Assembly: GCA_937893125.1 (NCBI GenBank)
Contig: CALBHW010000038.1
Location: 1,247 to 65,246, forward strand
Length of the DNA stretch: 64,000 bases
Direction of reading: 5' to 3'
From: an uncultured Clostridia bacterium
GTDB taxonomy: Bacteria > Bacillota > Clostridia > Christensenellales > UBA1242
The notes below the pieces were generated by a model. It saw nothing but the letters and a program-made list of their open reading frames with translations. It was not told the DNA's origin and made no database searches. The position numbers were made by a program, and so were the translations under genes. This document shows positions 1 to 63,675 of this stretch, piece by piece; position 1 is the first letter of the stretch; every line of letters starts with the position of its first letter.

Positions 1-1110
<1,110 letters not shown>

Positions 1111-1199
1111 TTATAAAAAAACAACAAAACAAGTCAATTTTTGAAAAAAAAAATTAAAAAAACGCTAAAATAAAACAATTCTTAACAAAAAGTAGTAAA

Positions 1200-1415
1200 A
1201 AACAACAAATTTTGACACAAAACAATATTTAAAATTTGATGTAAAAAACAAAAATTGACATAAAATAATATCTTTTATCATTTATAAACAATCTTTGACA
1301 TAAAAGGACAAATTGCGACATAAAAACAACAATTTGTAACAAAATTTGACAAAAACTAACAAGTTTTGACAAAAAAATATAAAAAATGACAAATAACAAC
1401 AAAATTTGATATAAA
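1200..1415. repeat. Phased array of about 10 TTGACA-like hexamers embedded in A-tracts (gyrB-gyrA intergenic region)
   Basis: Hexamers start at 1212, 1236, 1255, 1295, 1313, 1334, 1346, 1366, 1386 and 1406. Most spacings are 19-20 bp. The top strand is extremely A-rich. Confidence 0.6.
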
Positions 1416-1457
1416 ACAACAAAAAATTAACCAAAAAGGCATAAAAAAGGAAAAAAA

Positions 1458-3968
1458 ATGAGCATAGACGAAAAAGAAAAAAGAGAAGATTTTGTCGACA
1501 ACACAAAGTACATTATGGTGCACCTAAACGAAGAAATGAAAAAGTCTTTCATTTCGTACGCAATGGCGGTTAATGTTTCGCGTGCAATTCCAGATGTTAG
1601 GGATGGTTTAAAGCCTGTTCACCGTCGTATTTTGTATGATATGGGCGAAATCGGGCTTACAAATGATAAACCTTTCAAGAAATGCGCGCGTATTGTTGGT
1701 GATGTTTTGGGTAAATTTCACCCACACGGAGACTCGTCTGTTTATGACGCACTCGTAAGACTTGCGCAAGACTTTTCTATCAATGAACCACTTGTCGACG
1801 GACAAGGTAACTTCGGTAGTATTGACGGCGACCCACCAGCGGCGTACAGGTACACCGAAGCGAGACTTTCGAAAATCGCGAACGAGATGCTCCGCGACAT
1901 CGATAAGGAAACAGTCGATTTTTATCCAAACTTCGACGGCACGACGCAACAGCCTGTTGTTTTGCCTGCTCGTTTTCCTAACCTTCTTGTCAACGGTTCT
2001 GACGGTATTGCGGTTGGTATGGCAACAAATATTCCACCACACAACCTAGGCGAAGTTATTGACGGCGTCATTGCTCTTATCGAAAACCCAGCTATTGACA
2101 TTGACGACCTTATAAAATACATTCCAGCGCCAGACTTCCCAACGCGTGGGCTTTTGCTCGGGCGTGCGGGGGCGAGAACAGCGTACAAAACGGGGCGTGG
2201 CTCGATTATTATTCGCGCGAGATGTGAAATTGAAGAAGGCGAAAAGCACAGTAGAATTGTTATCACAGAACTTCCTTACCAAGTCAACAAAGCAAAACTA
2301 ATAGAGCAAATTGCCGACCTTGTTAAAGACAAGAGAATCGAAGGCATTAGCGACATTAAAGAAGAGTCGGACAGACACGGAATGCGTATTGTTGTTGACG
2401 TCAAACGCGACGCAAACGCACAAGTTGTGCTTAATCTTCTATATAAACACACCCCACTTCAAACAACTTTTGGTATTATTTTCTTGGCTCTAGTAAACGG
2501 CGAACCAAAGATTTTGAACCTAAAAGAAATGCTTTACTACTACTTAGAGCACCAAAAAGAAGTTGTTGTTAGAAGAACAAAATACGACTTAGAGAAGGCG
2601 CTTGAAAAAGAGCACATTTTGGAAGGGCTTGTTATTGCGCTTAACAATGTAGACGAAGTTATCAAAATTATTAAGGCAAGCCAAGACAAAAACGACGCAA
2701 ATGTCAAACTTTGCGAGAGATTTGGACTTAGCGAACGCCAAGCGAACGCTATTCTTGAAATGAGACTTCAAAGACTTACAAGTCTTGAAGTTTACAAAAT
2801 CGAAGAAGATTTGCGCGAGGTTAAGGCGCTTATTGAAGATTTGCGCGCGATTTTGGGCTCAGACCAACGCGTTCTTGACATTATAAAAACCGAACTTCTC
2901 GAAATTAAGGAAAAATATGCGACTGAGAGAAGGACGGAAATCACAATCGACTATAACGACCTTGACATCGAAGATTTTATCGAAAAAGAGGACATTGTTG
3001 TCTCATTAACTCACACAGGCTACATCAAACGCCAACCAGTTAGCGAGTACAAGTCGCAAAGGCGTGGCGGGGTCGGTGTTTCGGGGCACAAGACAAAAGA
3101 GGACGACTTTGTTGAAAAAATGTTTGTGTGCAACACGCACGACAATTTGCTTTTCTTCACAAATCTAGGGCGTGTGTACGCGAAAAAGGCATATATGTTG
3201 CCAGAAGCACAAAAGAACACGAAAGGCAGGGCGATGATAAATCTCCTTCAAATCGCGTCGGGCGAACTTGTGACTGAGATTATCAAACTTGACGACAACG
3301 AGTCGGGTAACCTTGTTATGGCGACGAAGAACGGGCTTATTAAGAAAACGACAATTGACGAGTTTAGACATATTAACAAAAACGGCAAAATTGCCATTAA
3401 ACTTCTTGATAACGACAAACTTATTTCCGTCCAAGTCACAAACGGCAAAGACGAAATTTTGATAGGAACGCACGATGGGAAATGTATCCGTTTTAGCGAG
3501 CAAAATATTAGGCGTCTTGGTAGAAATTCGCAAGGTGTCAAGAGCATAACCCTTAACAAAGAGGACTATGTTGTCGATATGTCGATAATTAAACCTGATT
3601 GCGAAATTTTGACAATTTCCGAAAACGGTTACGGCAAACGAAGTGCAACGGACGAATTTAGGCTTCAATCTCGTGGCGGAAAAGGCATAAAAGCGGGTGT
3701 TTTCAACGAAAAAACGGGCAAACTCGTTAACTTAAAACAAGTTAAACCTGACGAGGACCTTATTTTGATTTCGGACAACGGAACGATTATTAGACTTGAA
3801 GTCGAGCAAATTAGTTCTCTTAGTCGTAACACGCAAGGCGTCAAAATTATGAGACTGAAAGATAAAAATTATAAAGTTGTTTGTGCTTCTGTGACCGAAC
3901 ATCAAGATGACGACGACGACGCTGAAACTGAAACTGAATTAGAAGTCGAAACCCCAGCGGAAGAATAG
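1458..3968 (+). CDS. gyrA: DNA gyrase subunit A
   Basis: 836 aa. N-terminal [45 protein letters not shown], catalytic-Tyr region [11 protein letters not shown]-terminal repeat domain and acidic tail. Follows gyrB. Confidence 0.97.
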
Positions 3969-7400: not shown

Positions 7401-9758
7401 CTATTTCGCTTTTTGTGACTTTTTTTTGATTGAAAATAGAAAAATCTTTTCAAATAACCATTTTAAAGCCGAGTAGAGAAGGGAAATTGCACATAAACTT
7501 ATTGCAATAAATATTAGTTCTGGCTTCCCAAGTTCGACATAATTAAAGAACGAATTTGGAAGAATTGCGAATGTCGCGATTGCAAGTAGTAGCATTGAAA
7601 AAACGATTAGCGCGCGATATTTGTCGAGTGGCAAGCAAAGTGTGAGAAGAATGAAGAACGCGCCAAAAGTTACGCAATAGGAAATGAGTGTGCTTATAAG
7701 TTCGATTTGGTTTGTCATTGAGCAATAGATGTAGCACGCGACACTACTAAGGAAAAGTACGAGAGCACCAGGAAGTGCCTTTGACGACAAACTCGCAATA
7801 AATGACCCATCGACCCGTTCTTTGCTTGGTTGAAGCGCCAAGAAGAAGGCAGGGATTCCGATAAAGAATGTTTCCCAAATTAAAATTTGGTTTGGTTGCA
7901 AAGGGTAGTCGTAGGTTGGCGAAATAAGGACAAAAATGGTCAAGAATATTGCAAAAAATGTTTTTGTTAAAAAGAGACTTGACGCTTTTGAAATATTGTT
8001 TATAACTCGCCTACCTTCCGCGACGATACTTGGCATTGCGGAAAAATTGTTATCGAGCATAATAAGGTTGCTAGCACTCCTTGTTGCTTCGCTTCCGCTC
8101 GCCATAGCAATTGAACAGTCCGATTCTTTGAGCGCCAAAATATCGTTTACGCCGTCACCCGTCATTGCAACTTTTTTACCTTGTGCTTTCAGGGCTCTAA
8201 CAAGCGTGCATTTTTGTTCTGGCGTCACGCGCCCAAAAACATTGTAGTCGCCCGCAATTTTTGCAACTTCGTCAAGCGACATATTTTCCAAACTTATGCA
8301 TTTGTCATAGCCCGCGACCCCCACTTTTCTTGAAATGTTGCTCACTGTGTCAACATTGTCGCCCGAAATAATTTTGATTTCGACGCCGTTATTATTAAAC
8401 CACGCGATAGTGTCTTTTGCGTCTGGGCGAATGTTGTCCTCAATTGTAATAATCGCGATTGGGGTGTTATCTTTTGAGATGTTTTCGTCAATATTTTTTT
8501 CTTTTGACTCGCACAAAACAATGACGCGGTAGCCTTCGCTTGTCAAATGTTTTATGGTGTCCTTTGTGTCTTTCGCGAGTTTATTTGTCACAAATTCGGG
8601 CGCGCCGAGCATAAAAGTCCCAAGCGTCTCAAATTCGACCGCGGAAAACTTCCTTTCACTACTAAACTCGACTATATTTTTGGGTGTTTCAAGTGTTGTT
8701 TCGTCCGCCCAAAAATATTTTGAAAGAGCAAGGTTGGTGTTGTTTTGAGTCTTGGTCGCGTGCAAATAATTTTGCATAATTTTAGTGACATCGTCGCTAC
8801 TTTTGTCAATGCCTAAAACACTTTTAACTGACATTGTGCCGTCAGTTAGTGTGCCCGTTTTATCTAAACACAAAACATTTGTGCGCGCTAGCATTTCAAT
8901 TGAATATAGTTCTTGAACAAGCGTTCTCTTTTTTGCAAGGTTTATGACCCCAACAACAAGCGAAACACTCGTGAGTAGAAACATTCCAACAGGCATCATT
9001 CCAATAATTGAACCCGATGTGCGCTCGATTGTGGCTTTAAGGTCGTAACTTCCGCGCAAATCAAGAAAAGTTAAAACGCCAAGCGGAATAAGAATAAAGC
9101 CGATTGAGCGAATAATTATGTTAAGCGTCTTTAAAATGTCGCTTTGATTTTCCTTAAATTCGCGCGCTTTTTTAATCAAAGTCGAACTATATGTTTCAAG
9201 CCCGACCTTAGTAATTAAGGTTTTCGCCGTGCCACTTACGACGAAACTCCCGCCCAAAAGTTTGTCACCTTTTTGTTTTTTAATAGGCTTGCTTTCGCCA
9301 GTTAAAAGACTTTCGTTGACTTCGACTGTGCCGTCCACGACTTCGCTATCAGCGCAAATTTGGTCGCCATTTTTAATAAAAACGATGTCATCTTTTACAA
9401 CGCAGTTTTGGGGAATTAAAACGCGTTCTCCGTCGCGCAAGGCGTCGACTTTGCAGTCGTTAATGACGCTAATTTTGTCGACCATTTTTTTTGCTCTAAT
9501 TTCTTGCACGAGCCCGATAATTAGGTTACACAAGAAGATAACCGCAAAGGAAACATTTTTTGTGCTTCCGATAGCGACGAGCATGCCTGCAATCAAAAAA
9601 CAAATTATGTTAAAAAGAGTAAAAACATTTTCAAAAATAATTCTAGCATATGATTTTGTTGTTTTAGTTAAAAGCGTATTGACTTGCTTATTTTTCACCC
9701 TTTCGTCGACCTGCGCTTTTGTCAGACCGTTTTCGTAATCAATTTCGATTTGTTCCAT
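7401..9758 (-). CDS. Cation-translocating P-type ATPase (HAD-IC family)
   Basis: 785 aa. Motifs TGES, phosphorylation site CLDKTGTLT, and hinge MTGDGVNDILALKESD. About 8-10 TM segments. Confidence 0.9.
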   Translation of the reverse strand: MEQIEIDYENGLTKAQVDERVKNKQVNTLLTKTTKSYARIIFENVFTLFNIICFLIAGMLVAIGSTKNVSFAVIFLCNLIIGLVQEIRAKKMVDKISVINDCKVDALRDGERVLIPQNCVVKDDIVFIKNGDQICADSEVVDGTVEVNESLLTGESKPIKKQKGDKLLGGSFVVSGTAKTLITKVGLETYSSTLIKKAREFKENQSDILKTLNIIIRSIGFILIPLGVLTFLDLRGSYDLKATIERTSGSIIGMMPVGMFLLTSVSLVVGVINLAKKRTLVQELYSIEMLARTNVLCLDKTGTLTDGTMSVKSVLGIDKSSDDVTKIMQNYLHATKTQNNTNLALSKYFWADETTLETPKNIVEFSSERKFSAVEFETLGTFMLGAPEFVTNKLAKDTKDTIKHLTSEGYRVIVLCESKEKNIDENISKDNTPIAIITIEDNIRPDAKDTIAWFNNNGVEIKIISGDNVDTVSNISRKVGVAGYDKCISLENMSLDEVAKIAGDYNVFGRVTPEQKCTLVRALKAQGKKVAMTGDGVNDILALKESDCSIAMASGSEATRSASNLIMLDNNFSAMPSIVAEGRRVINNISKASSLFLTKTFFAIFLTIFVLISPTYDYPLQPNQILIWETFFIGIPAFFLALQPSKERVDGSFIASLSSKALPGALVLFLSSVACYIYCSMTNQIELISTLISYCVTFGAFFILLTLCLPLDKYRALIVFSMLLLAIATFAILPNSFFNYVELGKPELIFIAISLCAISLLYSALKWLFEKIFLFSIKKKSQKAK

Positions 9759-12473: not shown

Positions 12474-13271
12474 ATGATTCATTGGAGTGCTATTTTTATT
12501 TTTTTAGTTTTGGGACTACTTGGGCTTTGGGTCGCTTTTAGTTTTCTTAACAAAAACGGGCTTATTTTGTTCTCAGTCATAGCCGTTGCCCTTACATATA
12601 TATTGTCGGGAGTGCTTTTCTTCGGCAATTATGTTGTTATGATGTCGGCGGTCCTTATGCCACTTGTCTATTTTTCGCTCATTGTTATGTACGAAAAATA
12701 TAGCAAAGATGACGCAAAGAAAATGTTTTTCTGCCTACTTGCAACCTTTGGGGTGTTTTTCCTAAGCAAGTTCTTGCTATGCGCCTATGCTGATTCTGCA
12801 TATGGTAGCGGTGTTTTCCTTACTTGGGGTGAACTTGGAATGAATATTTGTCAAATCATTTCGTTTGCGCTTATCGGATTTCTTGGCAACCTTTTCGTCG
12901 ACAAATTCCCAATCAATAAGGAATACAAATATTTAAGACGTGCCGTCGTCGTTACAATCGCTGGCACAATGGACGCATTTCTAATTTGTTTCTTAGGCTA
13001 CATTGGAAATTTAAGTTTTGTTGCAATGCTTGTTTCGTTCTTGTTGAGTCTAGTCTTTGTTGCAGGTTCAGCGTTCTCGGTCTCCTTCCTTAGAAAATAT
13101 CTAAATCGTGAACCAGTCGCGCAAAAAAAAGAAAACGACAAAAAAGAAGAATACGCCGAGGTTGTCGAAGTAAATGTGGAAGAAGAGACAAGTGAACCTT
13201 TAAACGAAGAGGTTGACGAACAAATTGAAGAGCCACAAGACGACGAAAAGAGCAAGAAGAAAAGAAAGTAA
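12474..13271 (+). CDS. Polytopic membrane protein, possibly VUT/YhhQ-like (queuosine-precursor transporter family), with acidic C-terminal tail
   Basis: ATG at 12474 after AAGGAG. About 6 TM segments. PLVYFSLIVMYEKYSKDDAKKM and LRRAVVVTIAGTMDAFLICFLGYIG loosely resemble conserved VUT blocks. The family assignment is tentative. Confidence 0.4.
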   Translation: MIHWSAIFIFLVLGLLGLWVAFSFLNKNGLILFSVIAVALTYILSGVLFFGNYVVMMSAVLMPLVYFSLIVMYEKYSKDDAKKMFFCLLATFGVFFLSKFLLCAYADSAYGSGVFLTWGELGMNICQIISFALIGFLGNLFVDKFPINKEYKYLRRAVVVTIAGTMDAFLICFLGYIGNLSFVAMLVSFLLSLVFVAGSAFSVSFLRKYLNREPVAQKKENDKKEEYAEVVEVNVEEETSEPLNEEVDEQIEEPQDDEKSKKKRK

Positions 13272-13648: not shown

Positions 13649-14029
13649 GTTTATAATGATATTTTCTTAAACGAATGATATTACTAGCGTAGTGATATTT
13701 TTGCTATTGGAAAAGCGAAGGTTTTACTTCCTAGAATAAAAACGAAAAACAGTAAAATTTGAGTGCGAAAAATTGAAAAAAAATTAGAAAGGCTTTTTTT
13801 GTTTTATAAATAATTTTAGTGTGACTTTTTATAGTAATGTTTTCAACATACAACGCTTTTAGTGCTTGATAAGTGTGAAATTGTCAAGAAAAAAGCGGAA
13901 AGCGGTTTCTAATATGCAACACTTTTAGTGCTTGTTAAGTGTCATATTGTGATATTTCTTTGTTTCGGTTTTTAATTATATAACGAAAAATCCTTTACAT
14001 TTTAATGCAAAATAGATTAAAATATTTAT

Positions 14030-26775: not shown

Positions 26776-26894
26776 GTAGCCTATTGAAAAAATCTTTTAT
26801 TTATAAAATGGCTTTAAAAAAAGGCAAGTCTAAAATCTTTAGACAAGCATAAAAAACAATTTTTATGACTTTAAAACAAAAAAAGAAGAAAACT

Positions 26895-28613
26895 ATGACA
26901 AGAACGCAAAATATAAAGAAAAATTTAATATTTAATGTTATAAGATATGCAACAAATATTTTGTTGCAATTTGTTTTGCGTACCGTTCTCATCTATTATA
27001 TGGGGGCGGAATATTTGGGCTTAAACGGTCTTTTTACTAACATTTTTTCGTTTTTGAACCTTGCCGAACTTGGCATTGGGGGCGCTATTGTATTTAGTAT
27101 GTACAAGCCAATCGCGGAAAATGACATTGAAAAAGTTAAAGCCTTGCAAAATCTATACAAAAAGTTTTACATTATAATTGCTATTGTTGTAGGCGTCTTA
27201 GGTGCCGTGCTTACGCCTTTTATAAAATATTTTATGAATGGTGGCGTCGAAGCAGATATAAACATTTATATTCTTTATGTTATGTATCTTGCCTACACGC
27301 TTGTAGGGTATTTTTCGGCACACAAAAGGTCGCTTTTATTTGCCTACCAAAGAAACGACATCGAAAACAAAATAAAAACAGTTTGTTCATTTTTAATGGT
27401 TGGAATACAAATTGCAATTTTGATTTTAACTAGAAATTACTATTTCTATTTTTCGGTAAGTATATTGTTTGCGCTCGTGGAAGGAATTTCCGTGCAAATT
27501 GTTGCAAATAAATTGTATCCCGAAATAAACGGTAAAGCGGAAAAGCTCGACGACCTTACAAAAAAGGAAATTACAAAAAATGTTACGGCGCTAAGCCTAC
27601 ATAAAGTCGGCAAAGCGGTCGTGTTTTCAACGGACAACATTCTTGTTTCGACTTTTTTAGGGCTTGCAATTCTCGGCGTGTACACAAATTATAGTTTGAT
27701 TATAACTACTCTAACGATGATTTCGCAAATGATTTATAATGCGATAACGGCAAGTGCGGGAGATTTGATTGCGAGTTCTAGCACGGAATATGTGTATGAA
27801 AGATACAAAAAAACAAATTTTATTTTTTCATATTATAGCGGAATGACAACGATTTGCCTGGTGACTCTTTTTCAGCCTTTCATTGCAAAATGGACGGGAG
27901 ACGCTAGTTACTTGCTCGACTTTTCAACCGTGTTACTTCTTTGCGTTAGTTATTATTTGACGGGAATGAGAACGGGCGTGTGGGTATACAAAGACGCCGC
28001 AGGATTATTTGATCAAGATAAATGGAAGCCTATCGCGGAAGCACTAGTTAACCTTGTAGTGTCAGTTGGTCTAGCGTATGTTATGGGAATAAACGGCATT
28101 GTTATCGGCACAATCGTGAGTACGCTCGTCGCGCCTTTTTGGGTCGAACCATATGTATTGTACAAGTACTATTTCAAAAAAAGCACGAAACCATTTTTCC
28201 TTCGATACGCGCTCGATGTTGTGATTACTTTAGTTTGCGGAGTCGCAACCTACTTTATTTGTTCCTTTATCCCAACGCCAAACATTTTACTACTTGCGGT
28301 TAAATTTGTAGTTTGCTTTGTGCTTGCAAATGTCCTGCTTATTTTAGCCTATTTGCCAACGGGCGATATGAAAAATACTTTTCAAATTGTAAAATCTTTG
28401 TTTAATAGAAAAACAAAAGTAAAAAGAAATAACAACGACATTTCGCAAAACGACGACTTGCCAAATCAGATAGCGGACAACCAAGAAAAGGATAGTTCGA
28501 AAAATGAAGAGACGGACAACATTGACATTTCAAATAAAGTGAAAACGGTCGACCAACAAATAGACGACTTGCAAAATGAAAAGACTGACGAGCAACGAAC
28601 TGATGAATCATAA
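26895..28613 (+). CDS. Wzx-like oligosaccharide flippase (MOP superfamily) with acidic low-complexity C-terminal tail
   Basis: About 12-14 TM segments. N-terminal KKNLIFNVIRY..NILLQFVLR is typical of polysaccharide-biosynthesis flippases. The start could also be 26865. Confidence 0.75.
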   Translation: MTRTQNIKKNLIFNVIRYATNILLQFVLRTVLIYYMGAEYLGLNGLFTNIFSFLNLAELGIGGAIVFSMYKPIAENDIEKVKALQNLYKKFYIIIAIVVGVLGAVLTPFIKYFMNGGVEADINIYILYVMYLAYTLVGYFSAHKRSLLFAYQRNDIENKIKTVCSFLMVGIQIAILILTRNYYFYFSVSILFALVEGISVQIVANKLYPEINGKAEKLDDLTKKEITKNVTALSLHKVGKAVVFSTDNILVSTFLGLAILGVYTNYSLIITTLTMISQMIYNAITASAGDLIASSSTEYVYERYKKTNFIFSYYSGMTTICLVTLFQPFIAKWTGDASYLLDFSTVLLLCVSYYLTGMRTGVWVYKDAAGLFDQDKWKPIAEALVNLVVSVGLAYVMGINGIVIGTIVSTLVAPFWVEPYVLYKYYFKKSTKPFFLRYALDVVITLVCGVATYFICSFIPTPNILLLAVKFVVCFVLANVLLILAYLPTGDMKNTFQIVKSLFNRKTKVKRNNNDISQNDDLPNQIADNQEKDSSKNEETDNIDISNKVKTVDQQIDDLQNEKTDEQRTDES

Positions 28614-39737: not shown

Positions 39738-42143
39738 ATGCTGACAAAAGAAAAGAAATTTAGAAATGTACTTTTGTACGCATTTTGTGCGCTTGTTGTG
39801 GGTGTTATTGCCATTTTTACTGGAAACAACTTGGCGCTTGCAAGTAGTGTCACGGGAAATAATAGTGTTGTAACTTTCAGCTTTTCTTCTCTTGATTTGA
39901 CGGAAGAAGCGGGGAGTTTCAGTGGCGAATATGACGGAACATTTCACAACCTTGTAGCGACTTTAACTTACGACGAAACAGCGACAAATTATCAATGGAT
40001 ATTAAAAACAAATGACGGTGAAAGTGTTGTTGACGCGGGATTTATTTCAAATGATTTGAGTGCAAAAACGACCACTCTCAAAATTAAAAATGTCGCGGAG
40101 TCGGGCGCTTATTATATAAAGGTTTTAAATGGTGACACTGTCGTTGACTTTTCGTCCGCTGTAAACATTTCCATTTTGCCAAAAACAATAAATTTAAGAA
40201 TTACATCTGTCGTGTCGCGCGTCTTTAACGGCACAAACAAAGTTGAAATGACAAATGATTTTCGTGCGGATATGTTAGCAACTAATGATAGTTCTACAAT
40301 ATCATCGACGGGGCTTTTGCCTTCAATCGACGCGGGCGAAAATATTTACATAAAAGACGTTACACACACTTTTTCTGACGCGACTTTGGCGGACAACTAT
40401 AACATTGTGACGACTTTTGATTGCAGTAGGCTTGTAAATATTTCGAAAAAGCCAGTTATTGTGGAATTTGAAGACCTTAAAGAGTTACCAGTTGAAAAAG
40501 GCGCTTTTGTCGCGGATTACAACGGCAAAATTAGAAATGATTTTCTTAGCGCATATTATAAGGATATAAATAACAATGTTGTCGAAGTCAAAACGGAAAG
40601 CGTTTTTTTAAAAGGCGCTGTTTATTTAAAAAGTGAAATTTTAAACGCGGGAAGTTATGAAATAAGGGTAATTAAGCAAGACTCGGACAAAAACTATGTT
40701 TTTATGTACAGTGAAACGCAAGAACTCGGTGCTTTGAGTTTAAATATTAAGAAAATCGCACCTACTTTTAGGTTTTTAAAACAAGAATTTGTTTATACAG
40801 GTTACGAGCAAGATTTGGCTGATTTTGTCGAAATCGTAGCGCCAAAAAATACTAAAAAAACCGACGAAAACGGGAATGTTTATTACACGACCGAACAAGA
40901 AATTGTTTTTACAAATAGTGGCTCGTCAATCGTTGGCAGTAAGTTTACGACATATAATGAAGGTCTGGCTTTGAGTCAAAGCAATCGTTTTGCAGTGCTA
41001 GAAAGTGATAATTATCTTGCGTCTGAGCAACGATTTGTTTTTACACTCGCGAAAGCCGAACCTATTTTTGATTTGAGCGGGCTTGTCACTGAGTATACTT
41101 TCACGGGCGAAAAAATAAATATTTCGGGCGTTACAGTGTCGTCAAATCAAACAATCTCGCAAGACCAAAACATTGTAAATGTTGGAACTTACGAAAATGT
41201 GAGATTGTCGGTTGCTGAAAACGATAATTTTGCGTCAAAGAGTTGTAATGTTACTATTCGCGTCGTGCCAGCGGTAATTGATGTGAGCGGGTATATTTGG
41301 AACACACCACTTGAAATGACTTATAGGGGAGATAGGGAACAAGATTATTACACGTTGTCACTAATAAATGTTAATGATAGTATTGTTGATATTTCCTATC
41401 AAAACAACCGCCAAAAGAACGCAGGCAAATATCTTGCGACTGCAACGGCGACTTTAAAAAATGGTGTGACAAATTATTCCTTAAAGGGAACAATTGCGCC
41501 ACTTTTCTTTGAAATTCACAAAAGGGCGATAGAAAAGCCAACGCTTAGCGTTTCGTCAATTTTCACATACGACGGCGAAGAAAAGGAACTTGCTCTTTCG
41601 TCATCAATGAACGAAATTTTCTACCATTTCACACAAAATAACGGCAAAAATGCGGGCAATTATGTCTCAATTGTTGCTTTGAATGATAAAAACAACCTTT
41701 CGTGGGCGGACGGCTCATCGGACGACTTAAAATTTAATTGGACGATAAAAAAGAGAATTGTCACGGTTGATAGTTATAAGACTGTGCTTATCTATAACGG
41801 GCTAGAACAAAGTTTGAAAGTGAGAGAAAACAACCTATATTATGCCGTAAGCGAAAGCGCGATTGATGTTGGAAATTATAAGACCATTCTTATCTTGAAA
41901 GACAAGGAAAATTACGCGTTTGACGAAATGGGCGCAAGTGAATATGTCGTCAACTGGAAAATTACGGGCGACAAACAAACTGCGGGTGTTCCAATCGTCG
42001 CGATTATTCTTGTAACTCTTGTCGTTGGCGGGCTGGGCGTATATTTGACTCTTCACTATACGGCTGTTGCAAAAGAAAAGAAAGAAAGAAGAAAACGCCT
42101 TGAACAAAAAATGGCAAAAGAAAGAAAAAATAAAGTAACATAG
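39738..42143 (+). CDS. Surface protein (801 aa) with MBG-like repeats and C-terminal TM anchor
   Basis: Signal peptide (..NNLALA). Repeats ending NY.(V/F/L)...(F/I).I.K. C-terminal TM plus basic tail (KEKKERRKRLEQK). Confidence 0.75.
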   Translation: MLTKEKKFRNVLLYAFCALVVGVIAIFTGNNLALASSVTGNNSVVTFSFSSLDLTEEAGSFSGEYDGTFHNLVATLTYDETATNYQWILKTNDGESVVDAGFISNDLSAKTTTLKIKNVAESGAYYIKVLNGDTVVDFSSAVNISILPKTINLRITSVVSRVFNGTNKVEMTNDFRADMLATNDSSTISSTGLLPSIDAGENIYIKDVTHTFSDATLADNYNIVTTFDCSRLVNISKKPVIVEFEDLKELPVEKGAFVADYNGKIRNDFLSAYYKDINNNVVEVKTESVFLKGAVYLKSEILNAGSYEIRVIKQDSDKNYVFMYSETQELGALSLNIKKIAPTFRFLKQEFVYTGYEQDLADFVEIVAPKNTKKTDENGNVYYTTEQEIVFTNSGSSIVGSKFTTYNEGLALSQSNRFAVLESDNYLASEQRFVFTLAKAEPIFDLSGLVTEYTFTGEKINISGVTVSSNQTISQDQNIVNVGTYENVRLSVAENDNFASKSCNVTIRVVPAVIDVSGYIWNTPLEMTYRGDREQDYYTLSLINVNDSIVDISYQNNRQKNAGKYLATATATLKNGVTNYSLKGTIAPLFFEIHKRAIEKPTLSVSSIFTYDGEEKELALSSSMNEIFYHFTQNNGKNAGNYVSIVALNDKNNLSWADGSSDDLKFNWTIKKRIVTVDSYKTVLIYNGLEQSLKVRENNLYYAVSESAIDVGNYKTILILKDKENYAFDEMGASEYVVNWKITGDKQTAGVPIVAIILVTLVVGGLGVYLTLHYTAVAKEKKERRKRLEQKMAKERKNKVT

Positions 42144-42498: not shown

Positions 42499-43701
42499 AT
42501 GAAAAGAAAAGTCGACGAAGTAAAGGACTTTAAAAAAGAAGTAAACCCCGTAGTGGTTACTCAAAAAGACCAATCTTTATTAGAAGATGAAGAAAAACCT
42601 GCAAAGAAAAGTGCTTCAAAAAAGAAAGATGATTTAATAAAGAAAGATGAAACTTTAAAGGTGGATGACTCTTTGAATGTGGAGCAAAATATTTCAAGTA
42701 ATCTTACAGATGATGGCGTAGCGGACGATAAGTTTGCGGGTGACTCTAAAATAGATGAAAGCACAACTAAAAAGAAGTCAAAAAAAGATAAAAAGGGCGA
42801 AAAAAAGAAAAAATCGCACAAAATGAAGAAATCCACGCGTTTTACTCTTCTTATCGTCATTTTGGTTGGAATGTTTTGCGGGGTTGCGGTCGGGCTATAT
42901 TTTGGTCCAAAGAGCGTTGACCCAAATAGATACAATTTTGAAGTGTCTGCCTTGCTTGATGATGTGGACGAAATAAGAAACGAAGCATCGGGTAAGACTC
43001 CAGTCGAACTTGGCGCGACAAAAAGTTGTGTTTTGGCGTTTGATACGACCTTTAATGAAGGGCGAGTTAAGGTTGTTGGACGCGGAAGTGTTCTTGCAAT
43101 GGGTGTTACGCAGTCAATCAGCGCACTAACCATTAGAATGAACGACAAACTTTATTACGAAAATGTCAGTGTCAGCAACTTTGTTAAGGCGCTTAATAGA
43201 TATTATGTCGAAGGGGAAAACATCTCTCATTACGGCGGAAGTTTGTCGGGGAACATTGTGACTTGGAACACGACGCCAGACAACACGGGCGCGGACGATA
43301 TTAAAACAATGACCCAACACAAAGCGAAATTTGGTAGCACGATGAACGAATATATGACCTACATAGTCTCTTCAAAAACAGTCAATACTGCAAGCGCTGT
43401 CACAGTAAATGACGACGGAAATTATGTTTTTACGCTTACTCTTGACAAATCAAAATCGGTCGTCAATTATGTCAAGACGATGAAAGCGACGGGCGGGCTC
43501 AGCAGTTATCCAGACTTTACAAGTGACCCAAGAGTTGATATAATAATAGATGCGAATTATAGAATTCTCCGTTTTGAGAGCCACGAAGAGTACACGGTCT
43601 CAATGGGAATCAGCGCAAAATCCGTCGGAACGCTTGTAAATACATTTTATTATGACGAAGATTTCGCTATGCCAAAGATAACTGACAAATCGGTCGTGTA
43701 A
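42499..43701 (+). CDS. Single-pass membrane protein with Lys-rich disordered N-terminus and about 260-aa extracytoplasmic domain
   Basis: 400 aa. K/D/E-rich first 110 aa, TM FTLLIVILVGMFCGVAVGLYF. No recognised domain. Confidence 0.6.
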   Translation: MKRKVDEVKDFKKEVNPVVVTQKDQSLLEDEEKPAKKSASKKKDDLIKKDETLKVDDSLNVEQNISSNLTDDGVADDKFAGDSKIDESTTKKKSKKDKKGEKKKKSHKMKKSTRFTLLIVILVGMFCGVAVGLYFGPKSVDPNRYNFEVSALLDDVDEIRNEASGKTPVELGATKSCVLAFDTTFNEGRVKVVGRGSVLAMGVTQSISALTIRMNDKLYYENVSVSNFVKALNRYYVEGENISHYGGSLSGNIVTWNTTPDNTGADDIKTMTQHKAKFGSTMNEYMTYIVSSKTVNTASAVTVNDDGNYVFTLTLDKSKSVVNYVKTMKATGGLSSYPDFTSDPRVDIIIDANYRILRFESHEEYTVSMGISAKSVGTLVNTFYYDEDFAMPKITDKSVV

Positions 43702-61853: not shown

Positions 61854-61881
61854 TAGTCCCATAGTTTTCTATGGGACTTTT
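61854..61881 (+). terminator. Rho-independent terminator
   Basis: agtcccatag-tttt-ctatgggact followed by ttttg. Confidence 0.85.
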
Positions 61882-62004
61882 GCTTGAAAATTTTATAGTG
61901 TTTTTTTATTTGTTTTTAGTTTAAAGTGATTTTTTTATTTGTTTTTAATTGAAATGATTATAGTGTTTTTTGCATTGTCTATTTTTGATTAAAATTATTG
62001 AAAT

Positions 62005-62346
62005 CTATTCAAAATCTTTTTCGCTTAGAAGTGGAAAAATTGTAATGACAGGCTCTTCATAAGGATGAACACGCCTAATTTCTTTTAAAACATTTTTGAT
62101 ATTTCCCGCGTCGCAAATAAAGTCGAGTTTTATTTCATCGACCTTTTCAAGTTCGCCTTTGTTACCTATAAAAGGTTGAGCGCTTTTATTTGGGATAAAT
62201 GTTCCAACACACTCTACTTCGGACGAACAAAACGAATAATCGCCGATTTTTCCAGCACCTACCTTGCACACGGCATTTCTAACCTTGTCAACAAAATCTT
62301 TTGGCACCGCCACACAAATATTAACCTTTTTCACATCAATATTCAT
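62005..62346 (-). CDS. Small PII/CutA-like fold protein resembling the NIF3/YbgI insert domain (COG3323-like)
   Basis: 113 aa. Pattern VPKDFVDKVRNAV...GAGKIG.Y..CS......G.F.P......P.IG..GE.E.V.E.K....C.......V...I...HPYEEP. Confidence 0.45.
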   Translation of the reverse strand: MNIDVKKVNICVAVPKDFVDKVRNAVCKVGAGKIGDYSFCSSEVECVGTFIPNKSAQPFIGNKGELEKVDEIKLDFICDAGNIKNVLKEIRRVHPYEEPVITIFPLLSEKDFE

Positions 62347-62417
62347 TCCTTAATCTCCTTTCATTTCCACTTTATTACAACTTATTTGCCAAACTAAAGC
62401 GCCCCCACGATTTTCCC

Positions 62418-62620
62418 TTATAAATCTACCAAAACCTAATAGGCAATTAAAACTCATACTTATCGTTGGTTATAGCAAGAATTATTATAAATTATAGGAA
62501 GTAAATTTTGAAACAAGTTCAAAATTTGTGCTGACGCACCCGCAAAGCAACGCTTTGCACTTCCAATTTGAATAACCATCAGTCTCGCTGGAGAGTAAAC
62601 TCTCCGACTCAACTTCCGAT
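62418..62620 (+). ncRNA. tracrRNA-like element: anti-repeat (62418-62453) plus about 165-nt hairpin-rich tail
   Basis: 62428-62453, accaaaacctaataggcaattaaaac, matches the array repeat at 22/26 positions on the same DNA strand, so an RNA from the opposite strand to the crRNA could pair with it. It is followed by ..CTTATCG.., then helices aaattttgaa/ttcaaaattt, gtgc/gcac, gcaaagc/gctttgc (all enclosed by ggaagt/acttcc) and ggagag-taaa-ctctcc. No canonical terminator is present. Confidence 0.35.
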
Positions 62621-62787
62621 AATATACCATATCAAAACTTAATAGGGAACTAAAACTTATCCATAAGCACTTTACCTTCTTCGTTTATTATACCATACCA
62701 AAACCTAGTAGGGAACTAAAATATTGGAACAATCTATTGTATCATACTTGGAATTGTATTATACCAAAATCTAATGGGGGCTAAATC
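62621..62787 (-). CRISPR. Degenerate mini-CRISPR array: 3 repeats (36, 36, 35 nt) and 2 spacers (30 nt each), type-II-like repeat
   Basis: Repeats at 62621-62656, 62687-62722 and 62753-62787, exact 66-nt period. The minus-strand repeat reads GTTTTAGTTCCCTATTAAGTTTTGATATGGTATATT. Repeats differ from each other at 5-10 positions. No cas ORF occurs anywhere in the window. Confidence 0.55.
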
Positions 62788-63110
62788 AAATCTATTTTAA
62801 ATCGATGAAGTTTAATGCCCAAAAAATAAATTATAATATAAAAACGCCTTGATTTTAGCATTACATTTACACTTAAAACCTATTTTATATTTTTTTGATT
62901 TTGCGACTAGGTTTAAATTTTTCTTAATTTTCTAAACAATGTCTTTGATATAAACTTTGATATCTCACTAAAAATATTATGCAAACTTTTCCTTATTCCC
63001 AAAAATTTCGTTTTACTGCTATTTTTGGGAGCCCTTTTTCTTTACGCTCCGTTCGAGCCCCTTTTGTCTCCACTAACAAAAAAAACACGCTTACGTGTGT
63101 TCTTTTTGTT

Positions 63111-63155
63111 TGGTGGACGACCAGGGACTCGAACCCTGGACCCACTGATTAAGAG
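63111..63155 (-). pseudogene. 3' half of tRNA-Lys(CUU): anticodon loop to CCA (att-type remnant)
   Basis: Minus strand reads CTCTTAA-TCAGT-GGGTC-CAGGG-TTCGAGT-CCCTG-GTCGTCC-A-CCA. The 5 nt before the loop (CACAC) cannot pair with TCAGT, and there is no D arm or 5' acceptor strand. A hairpin plus T-run follows the CCA end at about 63078-63104. Confidence 0.8.
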
Positions 63156-63489
63156 GTGTGATTAAAACTTATTAAAATAGTTTATTTTATATCCTAAAAA
63201 TCCCTTTATTCCCTTATTTTATCTAGCAAATTCGTGTTATATAATTTTATTTTGTTTTATAGCAATTCTCCTAATTTTATTTAAGTTTTTAGTGTCTAAA
63301 TTTAGACAGATGTGAAACAAAGTATTTTTTAGGTGAAAGATATAGATAAAAAAATATCAAAATCAATATAAATAAGTTTTTCAATTTTTATGATAAATAA
63401 ACCATAGAAGAGAATATCAATTAATTCCTTATTTAGCACTTAAATCCTTGTAAATATGTTAAGATCCAAAAAAAATATAATAATTAAAG

Positions 63490-63519
63490 CAAAAAATACT
63501 GGGTTATCCCCAGTATTTT
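63490..63519 (-). terminator. Rho-independent terminator (minus strand)
   Basis: Minus strand: aatactgggg-ataa-cccagtatt followed by ttttttgc. Confidence 0.75.
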
Positions 63520-63675
63520 TTACTTCTTAAAAATTAAAATAGCCTTTGCACCAAGTGTAATTGTTGTGGAAATTAAAGTATATCCTTCCTTTTCCATTTC
63601 GTTACACTTGTCTTCAATTTTCTTTGCCATTTTCTTCGCTACGGGCGTGTAGCCTATTAGTTCTGTTTTATACAT
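63520..63675 (-). CDS. Small protein (51 aa), DUF4177-like pattern
   Basis: Not in the ORF track (under 60 aa). My translation is MYKTELIGYTPVAKKMAKKIEDKCNEMEKEGYTLISTTITLGAKAILIFKK. Its ATG overlaps the upstream stop (TAATG). A terminator follows. Confidence 0.45.
   Translation of the reverse strand: MYKTELIGYTPVAKKMAKKIEDKCNEMEKEGYTLISTTITLGAKAILIFKK

Follow-up and report, generated by a model that had tools for sequence, protein, structure and literature searches.

A decayed type II-C-like CRISPR array in an uncultured Clostridia genome, probably split by a miniature module with dif-like ends

What is a CRISPR repeat that stands apart from its array: the anti-repeat of a guide RNA, or a part of the array that has been pushed away? 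The question is raised by a small array of clustered regularly interspaced short palindromic repeats (CRISPR) near the right end of a 64,000-nucleotide (nt) stretch of DNA from an uncultured Clostridia bacterium (assembly GCA_937893125.1, contig CALBHW010000038.1, positions 1,247 to 65,246), referred to below as the window. The original prediction, made from the letters of the window alone, took a separate repeat copy on the left of this array for the anti-repeat of a trans-activating CRISPR RNA (tracrRNA) with a long structured tail, belonging to an orphan type-II-like array without cas genes. Our analysis supports an orphan, decaying array of the Cas9 type (II-C-like). On our best reading of the sequence comparisons, the supposed tracrRNA tail would be one spacer plus a 137-nt mobile mini-element inserted in a repeat, and the element itself is best read as a miniature Xer-type recombination module. 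Taken as a whole, we consider it probable that the locus is a type II-C relic split by such a module, with hairpins selected as DNA. This removes a false lead, leaving a decayed array only and no exotic long-tailed tracrRNA, and the part that deserves follow-up is the miniature dif-like-ended element that appears to have split the array.

A decaying array of a Cas9-linked repeat family

A repeat search of the window returned a family (D1) with copies at 62418, 62621, 62687 and 62753, spaced by 203, 66 and 66 nt, and reading out the array gave 36-nt repeats, 30-nt spacers and a 66-nt period from R1 to R3. The leftmost copy, R0, has the orientation of the array and was also found as family D2, at 85–88% identity over 26 nt. 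On the minus strand the repeat consensus is GTTTTAGTTCCCTAYTARGTTTTGRTATGGTATAAT; R1 starts with GTTTTAG and R2 with ATTTTAG, and R3 is degenerate there. Differences from R2 number 5/36 in R1, 11/36 in R0 and 13/36 in R3. Search and read-out therefore agree on the three repeats of 66-nt period that had been predicted at 62621, 62687 and 62753, and the fourth copy reported at 62428–62453 in the same orientation (22/26) was recovered as well. The GTTTTAG start proposed for the minus-strand repeat holds for R1 and fails for R2 and R3, and the divergence had been given correctly for R1 against R2 (5/36) and too low for R3 (about 10/36). The parts of the array, with sense given for the CRISPR RNA (crRNA), are:

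62418–62453, minus strand: R0, the fourth, presumably cas-proximal, degenerate repeat, member of families D1 and D2, 25/36 identical to R2
62454–62483, minus strand: spacer 0, exactly 30 nt after removal of the putative insertion, crRNA sense AATTCTTGCTATAACCAACGATAAGTATGA
62484–62489, minus strand: detached start of R1 (ATTATA, 6 nt), left of the putative insertion; read on the minus strand, TATAAT, the -10 box of the repeat
62621–62656, minus strand: R1 in its present form, first bases replaced by module sequence
62657–62686, minus strand: spacer 1, 30 nt
62687–62722, minus strand: R2, the best-kept repeat, minus strand ATTTTAGTTCCCTACTAGGTTTTGGTATGGTATAAT, which fits the scan pattern that retrieved cas9-linked arrays
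62723–62752, minus strand: spacer 2, 30 nt
62753–62788, minus strand: R3, the degenerate, presumably cas-distal terminal repeat, with 13/36 differences from R2

Between R0 and the start of a gene for a 113-amino-acid (aa) protein of the YqfO family lie 70 nt, and a consensus scan marked TTCAAA-17-TATAAT, at 62512–62484 of the minus strand, as promoter-like.

Scanning one genome per species with a relaxed repeat pattern yielded 20 genome loci, 18 of them titled Clostridia, Clostridiales, Eubacteriales or Christensenellaceae/Christensenella metagenome-assembled genomes (MAGs) and the other two Bacteroidaceae and Actinomycetes. In many of these loci the array has 8 to 21 listed repeats, spaced 66 nt from start to start, and lies beside open reading frames (ORFs) of 1065–1156 and ~300 codons that Pfam, applied to three loci (L024, L017 and L026), identifies as Cas9 (HNH, RuvC and Cas9 alpha-helical lobe) and Cas1. 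Complete loci run in the order anti-repeat, short terminated tracrRNA, cas9, cas1, cas2 and array, with the array read opposite to the cas operon. In three relatives (L023, L018 and L007) a degenerate repeat likewise lies at the end that is upstream in the crRNA sense; as R3 is degenerate at this same end, the lost cas operon would have been left of R0.

We take the subtype to be II-C-like from the look of the repeat and the layout of the loci, by comparison with Neisseria and Campylobacter repeats. With the type II-C arrays of Neisseria meningitidis and Campylobacter jejuni are shared the 36-nt repeats and 30-nt spacers, the GTTTTAG start and the TGGTATAAT end of the repeat, an extended -10 box, and, through the relatives, the opposite reading of array and cas operon and the cas9-cas1 neighbourhood of the repeat family. 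Type II-C arrays have repeat-embedded promoters. The locus differs from them in having neither a cas operon nor a tracrRNA in 68.6 kb, and in keeping only four diverged repeats, one of which appears to be split by a foreign 137-nt element.

The 68.6 kb comprise the window and 4.6 kb of additional right flank from the metagenome contig ERZ27300227, which is identical to the window over the checked stretch 62350–63520 and whose flank holds a Fur regulator and a Zn-type ATP-binding cassette (ABC) transporter. Over this length, tblastn with the Cas9, Cas1 and Cas2 proteins of the relatives returned nothing below E = 0.2, and Pfam found no Cas domain in 38 ORFs of the window, which are housekeeping and envelope genes only (including gyrB/gyrA, pyruvate kinase, methionyl-tRNA synthetase and glycosyltransferases). 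Following synteny through the 113-aa neighbour, as had been suggested, uncovered no relative with cas genes at that site. Both central claims of the original prediction about the array, its decay and its want of cas genes nearby, are thus borne out: the repeats have diverged, the repeat family sits beside cas9-cas1 in relatives, and the searches for cas genes were negative. One MAG lineage, ERR911987_bin.81, shows several stages of II-C decay: one locus (L026) has, besides an anti-repeat and Cas1, just one repeat and a Cas9 ORF no longer than 835 aa, and another (L023) has a 4-repeat cas-less array with two structured units 4.2 kb away. On local evidence the relic in the window is non-functional.

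The register of the array points to a 137-nt insertion

One period after the start of R0, at 62484, the window has ATTATA, the six bases with which the plus-strand repeat begins. We deleted in turn all segments of 125–149 nt starting at 62484–62499, and only a 137-nt deletion (62490–62626) restored a full repeat at 62484, ATTATACCATATCAAAACTTAATAGGGAACTAAAAC, which is 4/36 from R2. After this excision four repeats stand at an exact 66-nt period and 62454–62483 forms a 30-nt spacer; R0 and the restored R1 are then one exact period (36 + 30 nt) apart, so that R0 does not lie outside the repeat-spacer register. The same unit type has a core-to-core spacing of 137 nt in the strain L027 and in the contig L077 and, because it is seen there independently, the figure was not fitted to the locus. 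A covariance model of 22 units finds one copy in the window, at 62486–62628 (127 bits, E = 2e-21), the next match having E = 0.57. The module and its junctions are made up as follows:

62490–62626, plus strand: putative inserted module, 137 nt, hairpin-rich, edges ambiguous within shared ATA/TATA
62492–62502, plus strand: right-arm-like start of the module, TTATAGGAAGT, part of the 137 nt
62503–62527, 62528–62539 and 62542–62558, plus strand: three module hairpins
62559–62564, plus strand: closing strand ACTTCC, followed by the linker GAATAACCATCAG
62581–62614, plus strand: stem with the GGAGAG hairpin, after the linker GAATAACCATCAG
62612–62622, plus strand: left arm ACTTCCGATAA, the module end
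62475–62502, plus strand: left junction GCAAGAATTAT-TATAAA-TTATAGGAAGT, left half spacer/repeat DNA, right half module start, the same in L027
62612–62639, plus strand: right junction ACTTCCGATAA-TATACC-ATATCAAAACT, a dif-like 28-mer, left arm from the module, right arm from R1

The left junction is common to the window and two close strains (L027 and L028). The first of these, with a 113-aa protein at 99% identity, shares R0, spacer 0 and the left junction with the window, and carries at least four and a half tandem units (137, 137, 75 and 142 nt, plus a truncated fifth) against one in the window.

On the basis of this register we propose that the array, whose crRNA sense is that of the minus strand, once comprised four repeats of 36 nt and three spacers of 30 nt, and that a cas9-cas1-cas2 operon and its tracrRNA once lay left of R0 and have since been deleted. 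A 137-nt non-coding module would later have integrated at the TATA in the second repeat, moving R0 and spacer 0 by 137 nt from the other repeats and creating the illusion of an anti-repeat with a structured tail. More generally, insertions in repeats can mimic an anti-repeat with its tail, and register arithmetic reveals them.

Searching the spacers for targets, as had been proposed, gave no significant match for spacer 1 among phages or plasmids, and for spacer 2 a sole, non-significant match of 24/26 nt (E = 0.2) in a human-faecal phage record. The newly defined spacer 0 matches only in part: its central 22 nt are exact in two IMG/VR viral contigs (L153, 3127–3148, and L154, 6170–6191), inside a coding region (...ELAVLAITNDKLIVARE...), yet the match is 23/30 over the full length and weakly significant, the flanking 8 nt being mostly mismatched. 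A 40-nt match to Clostridium botulinum plasmids was rejected as chance, as it spans an artificial concatenation of spacers.

R0 compared with real tracrRNAs

In six complete loci, real tracrRNAs begin with an isolated repeat-like sequence that precedes cas9 and shares the DNA orientation of the array repeats, and continue with a tail of ~55–80 nt that has one or two hairpins, then a GC hairpin and T-run, and then the cas9 start codon; real tracrRNAs of the repeat family are ~90 nt and terminator-ended. The real anti-repeats share a change from GGGAAC to GGTTAC, which would give an internal mismatch in the duplex. R0 has CCAAAACCTA in its middle, as R2 has, and the anti-repeats have CCAAAGTTTA there; its identity is 25/36 to array repeats versus 21–24/36 to seven real anti-repeats. 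The predicted duplex of R0 with the crRNA repeat reaches -28.7 kcal/mol, and those of real anti-repeats -31 to -35 kcal/mol.

An nhmmer profile of seven real tracrRNA tails had no match near 62454 or anywhere else in the window, and a candidate for a decayed tracrRNA hairpin region of the L026 kind (62466–62486, GTTGGTTATAGCAAGAATTAT) was dropped, the profile having no match there. The consensus scan of 62124–62865 found no plus-strand promoter-like site, including before R0, and no plus-strand terminator-like site in 62454–62620, and Rfam (gathering thresholds and E <= 10) reported no tracrRNA, riboswitch or small RNA family in 62350–62800. The 167-nt interval between R0 and R1 does fold into the junction and GGAGAG hairpin of the original prediction, and better than its shuffles, with z = -4.25 on the plus and z = -3.75 on the minus strand.

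A family of hairpin-dense modules

Scanning metagenomes for the unit junction gave 101 loci, of which ~22, by reading, hold the same kind of unit, single or in tandem. At E <= 0.01 the covariance model had 34 matches in related contigs, including weak ones that overlap or lie on the reverse strand, and none in cas9-bearing loci. Module members are 75–160 nt long and hairpin-dense. A unit starts with TATAAA followed by yTAT(A/C)GGAAGT or CTATGTGATGT; its middle consists of a closing stem around three hairpins, the linker TTTGAATAA(A/C)CATCAG and a stem enclosing one further hairpin; and it ends with ACTTCCGATAA-TATAAA. Between subfamilies the hairpin sequences are wholly different, with the pairing retained. 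A viral scan for the unit pattern gave 14 matches, all 14 of which lie inside coding regions and were set aside as chance.

Two placements may be mentioned. Contig L086 carries two units 1.6 kb apart (148–298 and 1889–2042) around a gene fragment and a gene for a 329-aa regulator that is WYL-like by eye, so that this module of the family carries genes. A sister species (L031; 113-aa homologue 78% identical) has one inverted unit at 132–265 in the corresponding intergenic region by the YqfO-family gene, beside tRNA-Met, and no CRISPR repeats.

The hairpins covary without a strand preference

RNAalifold found compensatory changes in 21 of 23 pairs. A 30-pair structure has 90.1% of its cells paired versus 64.7% in shuffles, with changes on both sides in 26 of the 30 pairs, a level reached by none of 500 shuffles; controls with slid partners gave 33–51% of cells paired. 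Minimum-energy folds of the units on both strands share 695 base pairs. Inside the shared helices the plus strand has two internal G-U pairs and the minus strand has none; the candidates for terminal wobbles, 21 and 28, are balanced. In structured RNAs, G-U pairs commonly make up several per cent and are confined to one strand. Near-pure Watson-Crick helices without strand preference are to be expected of DNA hairpins or cruciforms, and the data point to hairpins that covary but act as DNA, not RNA; selection would act on them as DNA, in single-stranded or cruciform form. Folding energy, 3.7 kcal/mol better on average for the minus strand, was left unused for assigning a strand, the wobble count having no real bias.

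Unit ends form a dif-like core

The experimentally confirmed dif site of Bacillus subtilis is ACTTCCTAGAATATATATTATGTAAACT (PMC3025954). The right junction in the window, ACTTCCGATAATATACCATATCAAAACT (62612–62639), matches it at 21/28 positions and is the best 28-mer on either window strand, the next reaching 19/28; by our own count, the tandem junction of L027, ACTTCCTAGAATATAAACTATGTGATGT, matches at 22/28. Abutted unit ends, in a tandem or a circle, form a 28-bp core of 11-6-11 layout that is closely similar to dif, the XerC/XerD site of Firmicutes. Its left arm and centre are also found in many unrelated contigs of higher G+C content (0.58 where measured), where the core is a perfect palindrome, ACTTCCGATAATATAAnnTATCGGAAGT, after a covarying hairpin.

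The two junctions in the window are reciprocal hybrids between a module site, ACTTCCGATAA-TATAAA-TTATAGGAAGT, and a target, GCAAGAATTAT-TATACC-ATATCAAAACT, which consists of the end of spacer 0 and the start of R1. Given these reciprocal hybrids, the mechanism we prefer is integration by a tyrosine recombinase with crossover in the short central region. Exchange at the cores is also visible among five contigs (L051, L086, L114, L130 and L135) whose units are 95–100% identical: downstream, three of the five share the next unit and L130 and L135 each differ, the split falling directly after ACTTCCGATAATATAAA, and upstream L086 departs from the others just left of GATAATATAAA.

We propose that small circular modules move and shuffle by tyrosine-recombinase crossover in the 6-bp core centre, with the host Xer system as the most likely enzyme. 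Targets would be AT-rich TATAAA-like sites, in this case the TATA on the promoter side of a CRISPR repeat, and repeated integration at the regenerated core would build tandem arrays. A further step, which we take only tentatively and consider less likely than not, is that these are an undescribed class of miniature non-coding Xer-dependent modules, a 'mini-IMEX' (after integrative mobile elements exploiting Xer, IMEX) or clostridial counterpart of the Neisseria intergenic mosaic elements (NIME). Recombination might require their covarying DNA hairpins, perhaps as a folded single-stranded substrate or as accessory architecture, and the modules could colonise II-C repeats because the promoter end of the repeat, TATACC-ATATCAAAACT, would mimic the dif centre and XerD arm.

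A related core-plus-hairpin design flanks gene cassettes in a GC-rich lineage. In contig L072, two palindromic cores, ACTTCCGATAATATAAnnTATCCGAAGT (9389–9409 and 12627–12647), lie 3.2 kb apart, each after ~100 nt of homologous hairpin sequence, and flank a gene for a FAD_binding_3 (flavin) monooxygenase and a glyoxalase/bleomycin-resistance gene. Sites of this type are present in many contigs of Ga01573xx samples, often at contig ends.

Other dif-like sequences were noticed in passing. At 13726–13753 of the window, 114 nt downstream of tRNA-Val, ACTTCCTAGAA agrees at every position with the 11-nt left arm of B. subtilis dif, whereas the rest of the 28-mer is poor (19/28 in all); with ~0.03 such matches expected, this could be a half-site or due to chance. 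At 62977–62987, 340 nt right of the core, TTATGCAAACT matches the XerD arm of that site at 10/11 positions, with no good left arm, and the similar TTATGCAAAAG lies just right of the L051 array.

Weighing the explanations

Two readings would make the structured interval an RNA. If R0 were a tracrRNA anti-repeat transcribed from the plus strand, its 165-nt structured tail could serve a Cas9 encoded elsewhere or be a domesticated regulatory RNA; R0 has the orientation that anti-repeats have in real loci of the family, the duplex with the crRNA repeat is stable and the interval out-folds its shuffles. The predicted stability does stand, but proves nothing about a tracrRNA, being true of every array repeat read antisense, and the predicted folding into a junction and a GGAGAG hairpin, on which both strands beat shuffles, comes with helices that lack a G-U strand bias. 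R0 is nearer to array repeats than to real anti-repeats, falls into the exact 66-nt register once an independently recurring 137-nt element is removed and, unlike a Cas9 tracrRNA, does not lie upstream of a cas9; it has no plus-strand promoter and no nexus, tail or terminator homology (the lack of an obvious terminator had been noted from the start), and its 'tail' occurs in ~22 contigs free of CRISPR repeats and is absent from all cas9 loci. The original prediction had itself said that the tracrRNA interpretation falls if 62418–62453 is a diverged array repeat split off by an insertion; this is what the register gives, and by that standard the interpretation is already refuted. We regard it as highly improbable. 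Alternatively, the units could encode a family of small structured RNAs, with transcription starting from the -10-like boxes (TATATT/TATAAT) of the junctions, as it does in type II-C repeats. The strong covariation, conserved single-stranded linkers (GAATAAACATCAG), loop motifs (CUUCG, UAAC) and a -10-like box on the minus strand at each junction speak for such a family, whereas the presence of only two internal G-U pairs among ~695 helix pairs, with none on the other strand, the lack of terminators and of any Rfam match, and mosaic breakpoints that fall at the cores, as for DNA recombination, make it very unlikely.

The main rival keeps the units as mobile DNA. Miniature transposons of the MITE (miniature inverted-repeat transposable element) or PATE (palindrome-associated transposable element) kind, with terminal inverted repeats of ~11 nt (TTATAGGAAGT ... 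ACTTCCGATAA) and a TATA(AA) duplication, would be moved by a DDE or HUH transposase encoded elsewhere, and their likeness to dif would be coincidental. The unit ends are indeed inverted repeats at 10/11 positions, TATAAA stands on both sides of every unit, the targets as reconstructed are AT-rich and unlike dif, differing flanks surround the same units, and hairpins free of strand bias would suit single-stranded DNA transposition. A transposon offers no reason, however, for abutted ends and TATAAA to give a full 11-6-11 core at 21–22/28 to dif, or for the left arm and centre to be conserved even in an unrelated GC-rich lineage with a palindromic core; strict head-to-tail arrays that share one TATAAA are typical of site-specific integration, and no transposase-bearing parent element was seen in any locus. 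We consider this explanation unlikely, although less so than either RNA reading.

The reading of the locus as an array split by an Xer-type module has points against it, beginning with the fact that a model of terminal inverted repeats and target-site duplication also fits the junctions. The insertion is deduced from the register and from copies elsewhere rather than from a filled and empty pair at the locus: no strain with an uninterrupted R1 was found, and a lookup of the empty site by a 35-aa ORF over R0 returned only the same contig. The weakly significant viral match of spacer 0 is suggestive only. At the outer edges of every array the left arm is unconserved and the right arm only weakly dif-like, so that the targets would be AT-rich TATAAA-like sites and not canonical dif, which is unusual for Xer-dependent elements, and Pfam found no xerC, xerD or other integrase gene among the 38 ORFs scanned in the window. 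The core might also be the chromosome's own terminus dif, an attractive possibility in view of the GC skew, which is +0.083 left and -0.143 right of ~62.6 kb, and of gene orientation, which converges there. This possibility is weakened by gyrB (its C-terminal part) and gyrA (NCBIfam equivalog, 1204 bits) at 163–3968 of the window, 60 kb left of the core, and by the flanks of related arrays, which show no consistent GC-skew switch; cores are moreover multi-copy in several contigs. The gyrB-gyrA pair is usually near oriC in Firmicutes, and its position at the start of the window is at odds with a terminus-like skew switch 60 kb away.

Relation to known mobile systems

IMEX (CTXphi, TLCphi) and the 'dif modules' bounded by pdif sites in Acinetobacter (PMC5357621, PMC6449649) have several features in common with the clostridial units: borders formed by a 28-bp XerC-6-XerD-like core, tandem or serial arrays, no recombinase of their own, mosaic exchange exactly at the cores, and accessory genes in some modules. 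The units described here differ in being mostly 75–160 nt, non-coding and built of covarying hairpins, in having outer target arms that are not dif-like and an Xer dependence that is putative, and in their host, an uncultured gut Clostridia lineage. Their cores are directly oriented, whereas pdif orientation alternates in Acinetobacter.

NIME arrays consist of dRS3 repeats (20 bp) separating repeat sequence (RS) elements of 50–150 bp, with dRS3 serving as a phage attachment site and proposed as a recombinase target, and such arrays are stated to be unobserved outside Neisseria (PMC1797815). Common to both systems are an array of many unrelated 50–150-bp families split by one conserved short inverted-repeat site and a unit number that varies between strains (for NIME, PMC1797815). 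The clostridial junction is a 28-bp dif-like core instead of the 20-bp dRS3, and the clostridial units have a conserved, covarying multi-hairpin architecture. If the Xer-type reading is true, modules with dif-like cores are not limited to Acinetobacter plasmids or Vibrio phages, and occur in other lineages, uncultured gut Clostridia among them, both as tiny units made of hairpins alone and as gene cassettes. The element in the window, with 137 nt and two cores, would then be a tractable case for the role of DNA structure in Xer-type recombination and for the origin of NIME-like arrays.

Other features of the window

The tRNA-Lys named in the original prediction turned out to be only a 45-nt 3' half, tRNA-Lys(CUU)-like, on the minus strand at 63111–63155, which begins in the anticodon loop and extends to CCA; it is called by neither ARAGORN nor Rfam. 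A bidirectional terminator (63084–63101) follows the fragment. A strain contig (L004) has the same junction, GATTAAGAG/GTGTGATTAAAAC (63155/63156), with a different tRNA sequence on the left, and the junction of the fragment looks like the attachment-site scar of an integrated element.

Farther left, three ORFs have no Pfam match (39738–42143, 801 aa; 26865–28613, 582 aa; 42499–43701, 400 aa), the longest having no NCBIfam match either; all three have as neighbours very large genes for surface proteins (2148 and 1862 aa). Between the convergent genes for the 113-aa protein and a 293-aa protein, a 29-nt AT-rich tandem repeat is present in 2.4 copies at 61892–61959, just downstream of a bidirectional terminator hairpin at 61855–61878.

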